Below are positions 45,734 to 48,461 of a stretch of DNA of 64,000 nucleotides, in pieces. The notes below the pieces were generated by a model. The model was not told the origin of the DNA. It saw only the letters and a program-made list of their open reading frames with translations, and ran no database searches. Made by a program: the position numbers and the translations under genes. The stretch lies in assembly GCF_056712565.1 (NCBI RefSeq), contig NZ_CM160072.1; one strand, given 5' to 3'. Position 1 is the first letter of the stretch, and each line of letters opens with the position of its first letter.

Positions 45734-45779
45734 CTGGCTTTTCAGCCACGTAGTCGAGAGTCGACGTTGTTTAAAGAGC
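45734..45779 (-). promoter_or_regulatory. nutL: boxA, spacer hairpin, boxB
   Basis: Minus strand GCTCTTTAAACAAC (rrn-like boxA), GTCGActcTCGAC hairpin, TGGC-TGAAAA-GCCA boxB; paralogous to nutR with compensatory stem changes. Confidence 0.7.
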
Positions 45780-46045
45780 CTGCCAGTCTGTTCCATTTGG
45801 CTTCCAGCGTCCTGCTGACGGTTAAATAGTACGATATGTACTTTACAAGATCAATACAATTTGTTGTAAGTTGGCGTGGTTTTTTATAACGCTTTGTATT
45901 TAATAGTGTTGTTTTTTAGCGTGGATGTATTGCCTCGGCGATGTAAGGAGAGATCAGAATTGCGTGGTTTAGTGGGTTGCATCTATTTATTTTTCAATAA
46001 ATATAATTGGTTATGTGTTTTTAGGTGGGCGAACGTGAGGCAAAG

Positions 46046-46067
46046 AAAACCCGGCGCTGAGGCCGGG
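46046..46067 (-). terminator. Intrinsic terminator closing the cI operon (tImm analogue)
   Basis: Minus strand CCCGGC-ctcagc-GCCGGG followed by TTTT, directly after the stop of the 250-aa gene. Confidence 0.75.
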
Positions 46068-46072
46068 TTGTA

Positions 46073-46825
46073 TTATGCTGCAAGTCTCTTAACCCAAGTC
46101 TCTCTTTTGGAGAATGGTAGAACTTGGCTTGATTCATGGAAGAGTAAGGAGAGTTGTTGCATTTGATCACCAATTGCTTCGCTGTCTATAACAACAAATC
46201 TGTTGTTATACTCCTCACTTGAAGCTTTAAGATCAATTAGTTTCCCAAGCAATGAGTAAGCACTATTCCAGCTTCCTCCGTGTTTCACGCTTGATGTAAA
46301 AACGTATTTAGGTATGTCGGTTTTTATTGTTACAGGGACGGTAATTTGATGTCCACTCAAGCCATATACGTTTTCACGAAGAGAAAGTGCGTCTCTAAGC
46401 TCTGTGTGATATAGATAATCAATAACCATACTTTCAAACTTTTCAGCTTGAACTGGCTGATACCAGTCTAACGACAAAGTTGATGCGAGTATACCAGCTC
46501 TAATTATGTTCGATGTAATCGCACCGACATCCTTTTCTGTTGCCCAAGCAATGATTTCTCCTCGAGCATTGAGTTCTGCGCCTTCTTTAAGCAGTAATTG
46601 TCGTATCTCATCAAGTCGTTTTTTGGTAAGCGAGATCCCTCTTGCCTCCATATTCATTAAGGCATCGCATCTGTCACTAACTAAATACCTACCATTGACT
46701 TCACGGATAAAGGCACCGACATGCTCTCCATCATCACAGTAAGTGAATGGACTGATAATTCTCAAGGTCTTGCCTATTGGATGGCATTCGAAACCTAGTT
46801 GTGAGATCACTGTTGAGCACATCAT
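46073..46825 (-). CDS. Unknown 250-aa protein, distal gene of the rex-slot cassette (candidate defence component)
   Basis: ATG start overlaps the upstream gene stop (ATGA); no TM segment or motif I recognise; AT-rich. Confidence 0.7.
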   Translation of the reverse strand: MMCSTVISQLGFECHPIGKTLRIISPFTYCDDGEHVGAFIREVNGRYLVSDRCDALMNMEARGISLTKKRLDEIRQLLLKEGAELNARGEIIAWATEKDVGAITSNIIRAGILASTLSLDWYQPVQAEKFESMVIDYLYHTELRDALSLRENVYGLSGHQITVPVTIKTDIPKYVFTSSVKHGGSWNSAYSLLGKLIDLKASSEEYNNRFVVIDSEAIGDQMQQLSLLFHESSQVLPFSKRETWVKRLAA

Positions 46826-47379
46826 ATTCCAAACCCCATTTGCCCCGACTCATCTTCAAGCGGTAAAGGTATTCTCCCAGAGTAAGTTATGTTCAGATGT
46901 TTACAGAAGTAATTCCAATACCCTACCAGGTCATCTGGGTTTATGTCATCTTCGATTGGAAACGCTATTCTATCACTATAGTATCCAGCTTCTTCATAGT
47001 ATACATGGTAGTGAGCACCGTAAATGATATCTTGGTACTTCGGATGATCGACCTTGTAACTATTCGTGTGTTTGTCAAAGTGATAGGTATCTACCGCGAA
47101 AACCCTCTTGTTATGATAGAAAGCAATAATATTTATTTTAGGGTAAGAAATCGGGTCATCAGGTTCTGAATCCTGATCTGGTTTCCATTTCAGTTCAAAC
47201 TTTAGCCCTTGTATAGGTATACAATCCTCATCCAAGGGGATGATATGGGCTTGTAGCCACATATCAGAGCGACTTGGTTTCTGTTTCCATTTAACGCCAG
47301 AAAAGTTAACTATTTTTTTACAATAAAGTACTTTATCAACTTCTACTTGGCTTGGCTGATAATCATCTATTTTTGCCAA
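46822..47379 (-). CDS. Unknown 185-aa acidic Tyr/His-rich protein, proximal gene of the rex-slot cassette (candidate defence component)
   Basis: Starts 39 nt after the cI stop, apparently at TTG after an AGGG RBS (no in-frame ATG or GTG for 39 codons); no recognised domain. Confidence 0.6.
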   Translation of the reverse strand: MAKIDDYQPSQVEVDKVLYCKKIVNFSGVKWKQKPSRSDMWLQAHIIPLDEDCIPIQGLKFELKWKPDQDSEPDDPISYPKINIIAFYHNKRVFAVDTYHFDKHTNSYKVDHPKYQDIIYGAHYHVYYEEAGYYSDRIAFPIEDDINPDDLVGYWNYFCKHLNITYSGRIPLPLEDESGQMGFGI

Positions 47380-47418
47380 TGTTTACCGCCCTGTAAATTG
47401 TAGATAAAAGTGGTTTCA

Positions 47419-48078
47419 TCACCCAAACGTCTCTTCAGGCCATTGGCTGGCGATAACTTTCCCCACAACGGAACAACTCTCATTGCATGGGATCATTGGG
47501 TATTGTGGGTTTAGTGGCTGTAGAAACACCTGACCGCTATCCCTGATCAGTTTCTTGAAGGTAAATTCATCACCACCAAGTCTGGCTATGCAGAAATCGC
47601 CGGGCTCAACAGCTTGCTCAGGGTCAACCAGAATTAACATCCCGTCAGGAAAGCTGGGTTTGGAACCTGTTGGTGCGGTCATTGAGTTACCTTCAACCTC
47701 AAGCCAGAATGCAGAGTCACTGGCTTTTTTGGTTGTGCTTACCAATCTCTCCGCATCGCCTTTGGTAAAGGTTCTGAGTTCTGGAGAGAACATCCCAGCC
47801 TGAACATGAGAAAAAACAGGGTACTCATATTGTTTTTTAACTGGGGCCGATGAGTATTCGCCAACAGGTGAAAATGTCCCGTCGTGGTTGAATGATATGT
47901 TATCAATACCAAGGTATTTAAACACCACACCAATATCACTAAGAGATGGATGACGAGATCCGCGCAACCAGTGTCCAATCCCACCCTGCGTCATACCTAG
48001 CTCTTCGGCTAACTTCTCTTGAGTTATGCCGAGCTCTTTCATTCTGGATCTAGCCAGTTCATACCATTTCATTTTCAT
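47419..48078 (-). CDS. cI: CI prophage repressor, hybrid: non-lambda HTH domain with lambda-type C-terminal domain
   Basis: [23 protein letters not shown]; from [21 protein letters not shown] to ...[12 protein letters not shown] matches lambda cI; start ATG at 48078 or 48072. Confidence 0.88.
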
Positions 48079-48189
48079 GTCCTTATTATTACGCTCTGTA
48101 CTGGAACCATCCATGCACAATGTGTATTTTTACTTGTATTCGCAAAGTACATATTGTATTTTTTTATTCGTGTTTACTATGGAGGGCAT
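48079..48189. promoter_or_regulatory. Divergent oR/pRM/pR region between cI and cro
   Basis: 110-bp AT-rich intergenic region between divergent repressor genes; recurring TGTATT heptamers; operators not delimited. Confidence 0.5.
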
Positions 48190-48405
48190 ATGAGCAACCT
48201 ACGAAAATATCGAGAGTCACTGAATATCTCTCAAACAACACTTGCTAAGGCAGTTGGATGCACACAGGGAGCTATCGGACATTGGGAATCTGGTCGTCGC
48301 TTCCCAGACCTTAAAACATGCCGTGCTCTTGTTGCGTGCCTAAACAAGTTAGGCGCAAAAGTCAGTCTTGATGACGTGTTCCCGCCGGAACACAAAGCCG
48401 CTTAA
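48190..48405 (+). CDS. cro: Cro-like HTH repressor
   Basis: 71 aa from ATG at 48190 after GGAGGG RBS; HTH ISQTTLAKAVGCTQGAIGHW. Confidence 0.8.
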   Translation: MSNLRKYRESLNISQTTLAKAVGCTQGAIGHWESGRRFPDLKTCRALVACLNKLGAKVSLDDVFPPEHKAA

Positions 48406-48415
48406 TAAGCGGATC

Positions 48416-48461
48416 CGCTCTTTGTAACAACGGACATTCGTCCTACGTCGCTGAAAAGCGA
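48416..48461 (+). promoter_or_regulatory. nutR: boxA, spacer hairpin, boxB
   Basis: CGCTCTTTGTAACAA boxA, GGACattcGTCC hairpin, TCGC-TGAAAA-GCGA boxB. Confidence 0.7.

Follow-up and report, generated by a model that had tools for sequence, protein, structure and literature searches.

Which RNA sites does the N protein of a common E. coli prophage use, and to which of the known N systems do they belong? The window analyzed here, the whole 64,000-nucleotide (nt) stretch of contig NZ_CM160072.1 (RefSeq assembly GCF_056712565.1), contains a lambda-type immunity region at 43-51 kb. In it, two related sequences, each made of a boxA, a spacer hairpin and a boxB hairpin, lie on opposite strands, one upstream of an N gene and one downstream of cro. 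With a probability of roughly 90%, we read them as the nutL and nutR of a lambdoid prophage, sites that act in cis in an N antitermination system of the VT2-Sakai type. We establish the sequences and positions of both sites, their two hairpins (through covariation) and the identity of the N protein.

Sequence, position and covariation of nutL and nutR

The N gene and the elements of the two sites are as follows.

45735..45780, minus strand: nutL as a whole (boxA, ACAAC, spacer hairpin, UACG, boxB), from sequence, pattern match, covariance model and VT2-Sakai identity
45772..45779, minus strand: nutL boxA, GCUCUUUA, the rrn boxA core, followed by AACAAC at 45771-45766
45753..45765, minus strand: nutL spacer hairpin, GUCGA-CUC-UCGAC, 5 bp, from pairing probability (0.74-0.98) and covariation
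45735..45748, minus strand: nutL boxB, UGGCU-GAAA-AGCCA, 5 bp with a GNRA tetraloop, preceded 5' by UACG at 45752-45749
48416..48461, plus strand: nutR as a whole, from sequence, pattern match, covariance model and the equivalent annotated VT2-Sakai segment
48417..48424, plus strand: nutR boxA, GCUCUUUG, followed by UAACAAC at 48425-48431
48432..48443, plus strand: nutR spacer hairpin, GGAC-AUUC-GUCC, 4 bp, pairing probability 0.99
48448..48461, plus strand: nutR boxB, UCGCU-GAAA-AGCGA, preceded 5' by UACG at 48444-48447, from folding and covariation
45364..45636, minus strand: N gene, 90 amino acids (aa), MSRKTEFKGTAASRRRARRANLQ..., the presumed ligand of both boxB hairpins

On the minus strand, from 45780 to 45735, nutL reads GGCUCUUUAAACAAC-GUCGA-cuc-UCGAC-UACG-UGGCU-GAAA-AGCCA, and on the plus strand, from 48416 to 48461, nutR reads CGCUCUUUGUAACAAC-GGAC-auuc-GUCC-UACG-UCGCU-GAAA-AGCGA. 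Both strings had been described in an earlier note on this DNA and are present as it gave them, apart from small slips: nutL ends at 45735 and not at 45734, GCTCTTT of nutR begins at 48417, and one C of GTAACAAC had dropped out of the nutR string. As that note also held, boxA and the boxB loop are common to the two sites, while the spacer and boxB stems differ in sequence and are still paired. In a family alignment, three of the four shared spacer pairs are changed on both sides between nutL and nutR (U-A/G-C, C-G/A-U and G-C/C-G), and one boxB pair is swapped from G-C to C-G.

Both sites stand where a lambda-type early region places them. Read along the plus strand, the region carries the cIII thermoregulator, ea10, sieB, N (minus strand), two genes, cI (minus strand) and then cro, cII, O, P and ren (plus strand), an order like that of the lambda immunity region, cIII-ea10-(sieB)-N-nutL-pL ... 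cI-pR-cro-nutR-tR1-cII-O-P. nutL lies ~40 nt into the putative pL transcript and ~100 nt upstream of N, and nutR starts 11 nt past the cro stop codon, with a tR1-like region and cII downstream of it. The composite pattern GCTCTTT-N5-8-AC-N11-14-CTACGTNGCTGAAAAGCNA, which fixes only letters common to nutL and nutR, has two matches in the 64 kb, exactly these two sites, and matched in 0/100 shuffled windows. A covariance model of 52 related sites scored nutL at 63.0 bits and nutR at 56.7 bits in the window; as both belong to its training set, their recovery is by construction. No third nut site was found in the window by the pattern, or by the covariance model below E = 4, and a scan of 43-51 kb with Rfam 15 matched no nut family at nutL or nutR.

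The sites themselves are already known from the annotation of phage VT2-Sakai (Sp5; GenBank AP000422.1). VT2-Sakai nutL is 100% identical over 76 nt, and the same 76 nt occur in 53 phage records; its nutR is identical from boxA through boxB, and pL, pR and tR1 take the same positions. The feature "putative N-utilization leftward" of AP000422.1 maps to 45740-45780 of the window and its rightward counterpart to the nutR segment. Both GenBank features end within the boxB loop, and no sub-elements are named in the feature table. Unlike VT2-Sakai, the window holds a non-Shiga toxin (Stx) lambdoid prophage of B2-type E. coli (Nissle 1917, CFT073, ATCC 25922), and the cargo between pL and cI differs between the two.

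RefSeq labels the N protein "hypothetical protein" (WP_000088199.1). It matches Pfam PF25694 N_peptide (E = 1.6e-32) and PHROG 271 and is 98.9% identical to VT2-Sakai N. The single sequence had no match in the PDB; a profile of 14 diverse N-family members was needed and reached lambda N in PDB 6GOV, a cryo-electron microscopy structure of the antitermination complex (E = 7.8e-4), with the arginine-rich motifs aligned (RRRxRRA here, RRRERRA in lambda).

The earlier note took the paired differences between nutL and nutR as direct evidence for a structured RNA. Two sequences make a weak argument alone, but covariation across 52 sites argues strongly that the spacer hairpin and boxB are both structured RNA. 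We scanned a viral contig collection with ACAAY-N10-18-CUACG-NNN-CUGAAAAG, a pattern that leaves both stems unconstrained. Among the 45 distinct core sequences retrieved, the boxB stem is fully paired in 41 (six stem types) and a spacer hairpin of at least 4 bp is present in 41 (nine paired stem types); the remaining four are chance matches that carry neither hairpin, so the pattern does not force pairing. We then aligned 52 distinct sites with MAFFT, including the GenBank H-19B, 933W-type, POCJ13, epsilon34 and Oslo sites, and all gaps fell in the hairpin loop. Paired cells amounted to 94.2%, compared with 68.2 +/- 1.3% after shuffling, a value reached by 0/500 shuffles; cells changed on both sides numbered 143, compared with 41.6 in shuffles, and sliding the 3' partner by 1-3 columns left at most 48% paired. 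Within helix 1, the spacer hairpin, 93.5% of cells are paired, and its central three pairs (2-4) show 3-5 pair types with 0 mispairs in the 52 sequences. The outer boxB pairs 1 and 2 covary as UA/AU/CG and GC/CG/AU. Among relatives whose N is at least 97% identical, the loop of the nutL hairpin varies (CUC, ACAC, ACUC, AUC, GCAC) over a constant stem; a G-U variant of the nutR spacer hairpin, GGGC/GUCC, occurs in 7 loci, and POCJ13 nutL has GCAA at the boxB loop position.

Proposed function and competing explanations

Three further features bear on how the sites would work.

45826..45854, minus strand: putative pL, TTGATC-17-TACTAT, placed where AP000422.1 has its "putative major leftward promoter"
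48134..48162, plus strand: putative pR, TTGTAT-17-TATTTT, ahead of cro (48190-48405) and matching in position the "putative major rightward promoter" of AP000422.1
48491..48516, plus strand: tR1-like region, UAUGCGUUUCCACGCAUACCUUUCAA, the "putative rho dependent terminator for pR transcript" of AP000422.1

A promoter scan detected neither pL nor pR, and we placed both from the sequence and the VT2-Sakai annotation; the pL transcript would start near 45819 with a lambda-like GUCAGCAGGACGC. In lambda, NusB-S10 sits on the linear boxA, NusA on the spacer and N, and the N motif on the boxB loop, and RNA polymerase carries the complex along (PMC8632103). For the window sites, we infer all binding events and antitermination itself from their homology to lambda and H-19B. 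nutL would be transcribed from pL and nutR from pR, the early promoters, and boxA (GCUCUUUA/G) would be single-stranded in the nascent RNA and bound by NusB-S10. Folding of the spacer hairpin would bring ACAAC and UACG together as a 10-11 nt, lambda/P22-like spacer for NusA. Once the hairpin has closed, boxA and boxB are separated linearly by 10 nt (nutL) or 11 nt (nutR); the corresponding spacing is 8-9 nt in lambda (PMC2724277), and P22 nutL has 11 nt. The N-terminal arginine-rich motif of N would bind the 5-bp stem and GAAA tetraloop of boxB, and N would tie RNA polymerase to the nut RNA and the Nus factors, giving a complex resistant to termination. This complex would pass the tR1-like region, the putative first terminator met by a nutR-loaded polymerase, into cII-O-P, and on the other side the leftward terminators.

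RNA folding, which the earlier note had proposed as a check on the stems, gave a divided answer. Short nutL segments reach their minimum energy as two hairpins (-12 kcal/mol, z = -2.9), and short nutR segments come near it in the same form, but with its leading G nutL favors a helix between boxA and boxB. boxA (xGCUCUUUA) could pair almost completely with UGAAAAGCx, which spans the loop and 3' arm of boxB. This partial complementarity limits what thermodynamic folding alone says about the stems, and the support for two hairpins comes from the comparative evidence.

Several points weigh against the nut-site reading or parts of it. With its leading G, nutL folds boxA onto the 3' arm of boxB at -14.3 kcal/mol, as opposed to -12.0 kcal/mol for the two hairpins, and the same competitor appears in short nutR segments, being the minimum-energy fold of the 46-nt nutR. 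The U-A pair closing the tetraloop is unvaried in 51/52 sites, so covariation cannot separate a 4-nt from a 6-nt boxB loop, and the collection pattern fixed ACAAY, CUACG and the loop, whose invariance is thus by construction. Neely and Friedman reportedly proposed in 2000 that the hairpin of the H-19B NUT acts as a "reducer", and the role proposed here for the spacer hairpin draws on that proposal, which the closed-hairpin distances would fit.

Two alternatives concern what the conserved pairing is for. The functional fold could be a long-range boxA-boxB helix enclosing the spacer hairpin, a switch that masks boxA and boxB until protein binding. The energies above favor it for nutL and the 46-nt nutR, and the base before GCU matches the boxB stem in both window sites (a G matching C in nutL and a C matching G in nutR). 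Yet the fourth pair of this helix is kept in 12 of 21 family members with a recognizable boxA, in few lineages; many family nutL sites without any boxA (GGUGAA...) retain both hairpins; and prefix folds indicate that the local hairpins form earlier in transcription, which together make such a switch very unlikely in our view. The spacer hairpin could also be a sequence-specific site for a host or phage protein or RNase III and not a sequence-independent spacer. Its presence and position are invariant in the family, and H-19B nutR has been footprinted with N, NusA and Rho, of which Rho and NusA leave a footprint on the spacer (PMC3526286). The slot nevertheless holds at least nine stem sequences and many loops (3-6 nt), with only the pairing conserved, and P22 and related nut sites with the GCGCUGACAAAGCGC boxB have a linear 11-nt spacer and no hairpin. 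Neely and Friedman are also said to have found that compensatory changes restore H-19B NUT activity and that deletion of the dyad has little effect, which we count against a binding site, and we consider one unlikely.

Two further readings would deny the elements a role with N altogether. The hairpins could be only terminators or Rho-loading sites: a terminator scan flags the palindrome at 45753-45765, though on the opposite strand; in addition, the H-19B nutR/tR1 unit has been used as a Rho-dependent terminator, and H-19B nutR overlaps the rut site of tR1 (PMC3526286). But the transcribed strand has no U-run after either hairpin, and the boxB loop covaries with the type of arginine-rich motif in N, which is not expected of a plain terminator. 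We give this reading very little credence; a dual nut/rut role of nutR is compatible with the nut sites described here. The nutL region could instead be protein-coding, since a 60-aa open reading frame exists there and RefSeq annotates it as a "hypothetical protein" (WP_000438342.1, 45614-45796, minus strand) in E. coli Nissle 1917 and CFT073, where it spans the N leader and all of nutL. In relatives whose N is at least 97% identical, however, 1-nt differences in the length of the hairpin loop shift the frame and cut it to 26 aa, and for this reason the coding sequence is probably a false gene call. Conservation tracks base pairing and not codons, and the same architecture recurs at nutR, where no such open reading frame exists; a coding explanation is extremely improbable.

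N specificity and relation to known systems

The spacer-hairpin architecture has already been documented for H-19B, and the NUT sites of H-19B and 933W (NC_000924) have the same order of boxA, ACAAY, spacer hairpin, UACG and boxB as the window. We rebuilt H-19B nutR from the antisense oligonucleotides of a footprinting study (PMC3526286) and confirmed it in GenBank AF034975. Its GGAC-AUUC-GUCC hairpin, UACG and UCGCU/AGCGA stem are the same as those of window nutR, bearing out the earlier note's view of the hairpin as H-19B-type architecture, and the sequence of the window tR1 region also follows H-19B nutR. The two nutR sites differ only in boxA and loop. H-19B has a degenerate boxA in nutR (GCUAUUUU) and none in nutL, whereas the boxA of the window is the rrn consensus, and the H-19B loop is the 5-nt GACAA, with an extra C, where the window has the 4-nt GAAA.

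The two N proteins share an N-terminal M[ST]R[RK]TxFKG...RRR and a C-terminal LPNVALYAAGYRKSKQLTAR, but the arginine-rich motif of H-19B N is longer by 7 residues (RRRERLKAKALANGVL, compared with RRRARRANL here). The same note's assignment of this N to the H-19B type therefore needs correcting: the protein is of VT2-Sakai type, 41% identical to H-19B/933W N, and boxB loop and boxA differ with it. The sites are H-19B-like in architecture and probably of another specificity class. H-19B N is reported to work without NusB and S10, and the consensus boxA of the window suggests that such independence may not hold for this phage.

Both window boxA elements match the consensus [C/U]GCUCUU(U)A and lie 5' of boxB. 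They had been judged nearer to rrn than to lambda, and GCUCUUUA and GCUCUUUG indeed carry the CUUU of rrn boxA (UGCUCUUUA), while lambda boxA (CGCUCUUA) is one U shorter (PMC2724277); position 9 of boxA reportedly tolerates a purine (PMC3177189). The rrn spacer, ACAAUUUA, which NusA binds as RNA (PMC2724277), begins with the conserved ACAAY, and by analogy this element may be a NusA contact in these nut sites.

Lambda likewise has boxA, spacer and boxB in its pL and pR transcripts, but its spacer is linear, 8-9 nt long and without a hairpin (PMC2724277). A U-A pair likewise closes the lambda boxB stem below a loop rich in G and A, but that loop is a pentaloop, GAAAA or GAAGA, and not GAAA, and the window N has no tryptophan at the position of lambda Trp18 in the 6GOV alignment. 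According to Legault and colleagues, writing in 1998, the lambda pentaloop is said to adopt a GNRA-like fold with one base flipped out. P22 has an rrn-type boxA (GCUCUUUA) as in the window, and the C-terminus of its N protein (gp24) matches at 79% over the last 24 residues; the loop of P22 nutL is GACAA, with the C looped out (PDB 1A4T; bioRxiv 10.1101/2025.07.03.663028). The N-boxB complexes described in the literature, those of lambda, P22 and phi21, have 5- or 6-base loops.

Loop size goes together with the arginine-rich motif of N. Across ~330 nutL-N pairs, the motif with the extra stretch (RRRERLKAKALANG) occurs with GACAA loops in 163 pairs, and the motif that lacks it (RRRxRRAxLQ) occurs with GAAA in 164 pairs and with GCAA in 3, never with GACAA, so that there is no crossover. 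These pairs represent about five distinct motifs in the GACAA class and 46 in the GAAA class. Among loci grouped by N type, GAAA is found in 80/80 with a window-type N and GACAA in 80/80 with an H-19B-type N. The GAAA set was partly selected by its loop, and the independent evidence consists of the N-based retrievals and a separate scan for GACAA. An exception to the rule is provided by Salmonella phages Oslo (L086) and 103203_sal5 (L088), which combine an H-19B-like N motif with odd boxB loops: their nutL (~4340-4376) has GCUC-CGUCAAC-GAGC and their nutR UCGC-UGACAAG-GCGA, with a U-G closing pair.

The genome paper of epsilon34 guessed "a novel BoxB specificity" for its N (PMC2629481), and the epsilon34 boxB loops are GAAA. 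We tentatively propose, at slightly less than even odds, that N of the VT2-Sakai/epsilon34 type forms a boxB-specificity class of its own, recognizing a GNRA tetraloop (GAAA, or GCAA in POCJ13 nutL) with no flipped base through a lambda-like RRRxRRA motif without the tryptophan.

N proteins are also mosaic. In several loci (L096, L101, L104 and others) the GAAA-type arginine-rich motif is joined to a C-terminus of either the P22/H-19B type (...LPxVALYAAGxRKSxxxTAR) or the lambda type (...GRQKVKGKSIPLI), and the RNA-binding and polymerase-binding ends of N thus seem to reassort.

Neighboring elements and a satellite-like island with a nut-like array

The 3.6 kb around the nut sites are 100% identical to prophages of E. 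coli Nissle 1917, ATCC 25922 and many similar strains, and identical in the isolated phages ev017, ev207 and PhiR57_1. In CFT073 (NC_004431.1; L487, 25373-30776) the same prophage module lies at icd, with identical N, DUF1828, cro and cII proteins and a disrupted cI. The sole real Rfam match in 43-51 kb is the cIII thermoregulator RNA (RF01804, 88.5 bits, E = 3.8e-21) at 43683-43741 on the minus strand, upstream of cIII. Between nutL and the ribosome-binding site of N, positions 45642-45728 of the minus strand form a long imperfect hairpin of ~-39 kcal/mol, which we take to recall the RNase III-processed N leader of lambda. A CGCCAAAGUU(U/C)AU element 5' of the Shine-Dalgarno sequence is conserved in the N leaders of VT2-Sakai, H-19B, 933W and epsilon34.

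Two overlapping minus-strand genes (46073-46825 and 46822-47379) lie between cI and a terminator at 46048-46069, in the position of lambda rexAB, a slot whose cargo differs among related phages. One belongs to DUF1828/PHROG 1960 and the other to PHROG 2017, and they match the PADLOC candidate defense system PDC-M24 (M24B over its full length, E = 4.7e-10; M24A in part, E = 4.8e-4). An intrinsic-terminator-like hairpin of 12 bp with a U-run lies antisense in the 3' end of cII (48792-48819, minus strand), at the position of the lambda/P22 oop terminator. A "phage repressor (pr)" gene of Nissle 1917 has been reported to protect K-12 against lambda and Stx phages (PMC5987069). The cloning primers of that study map to 48501-48519 and 48850-48869 and its quantitative PCR primer to 48744-48761; what was cloned as pr (48501-48871, plus strand) therefore comprises the cII homologue (48547-48843) plus the oop-like terminator antisense to it, and not cI.

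The most interesting observation we met lies outside the window. An island at tRNA-Thr next to proA (locus L138, and L406 in E. coli CP131_Sichuan, NZ_CP053720.1) carries, in order, a P4-type integrase, an AlpA-family regulator (Pfam E = 8.5e-20), antA/B, an icd-like gene, a P4-family primase and ssb; by this gene order it has the layout of a phage-inducible chromosomal island. Its 650-nt int-alpA spacer holds a tandem nut-like array (L406, 9060-9651; equivalent to L138, 1440-2000; variants in L407-L412) whose sites differ from one another in N specificity. About twelve hairpins and five or six motifs resembling boxA make up the array, and all of them share the sense strand of alpA. The array contains a Sakai-type nut with GAAA loop and spacer hairpin (58.4 bits with the covariance model), an H-19B-type nutL (35.7 bits; 94% identical over 48 nt to H-19B/933W nutL), a second copy of the GCGCUGACAAAGCGC boxB also found in P22 nutL, the lambda nutR boxB GCCCUGAAAAAGGGC, a hairpin with a CGAAAU loop similar to the one in mEpX2, and further elements such as CACGC-CUAAUA-GCGUG. 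After the array, ~85 nt upstream of alpA, comes a terminator-like hairpin of ~15 bp. There are long and short forms, and the first unit toggles between GAAA and GACAA among otherwise near-identical islands.

The array region is partly matched in 663/5426 complete E. coli genomes. It is not general to such islands, being present in 7/81 alpA loci examined and absent from EcCICFT073 and 73/80 others. What we take to be EcCICFT073 is a satellite-like island between roxA and phoQ of CFT073, ~20 kb from the prophage module, whose int-alpA end (L488, 11931-13714) has no boxB array in its spacer; the spacer carries four repeats of ACAACG and CACUCUUAAAAA, which resembles lambda nutL. In 2018 Fillol-Salom et al. 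showed that alpA is switched on by helper phages and described the inducer that the phage encodes as still being studied (PMC6092414). A literature search returned nothing linking alpA or such islands to N or nut, though journals outside the search may report it. This type of island may, from its sequence, sense several lambdoid helper phages via their N proteins.

For the window itself very little changes, since regulatory sites of this kind are expected in a common E. coli prophage. The family alignment provides a covariation-supported model of boxA, ACAAY, hairpin, UACG and boxB that can be used to annotate nut sites. If N of the VT2-Sakai type does form its own specificity class, one base in the loop and 7 residues in the motif would separate it from H-19B/933W N, and the two large groups of Stx and non-Stx lambdoid phages, whose nutR stem and spacer hairpin are identical, would have N proteins that do not cross-complement. 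It would also represent a "ground-state" tetraloop version of the interaction, raising the question of how NusA engages without a flipped-out base. The coupling of loop and motif, a modestly new point, predicts whose N might act on whose nut sites, which matters for gene expression in Stx phages and for satellites that may sense N.

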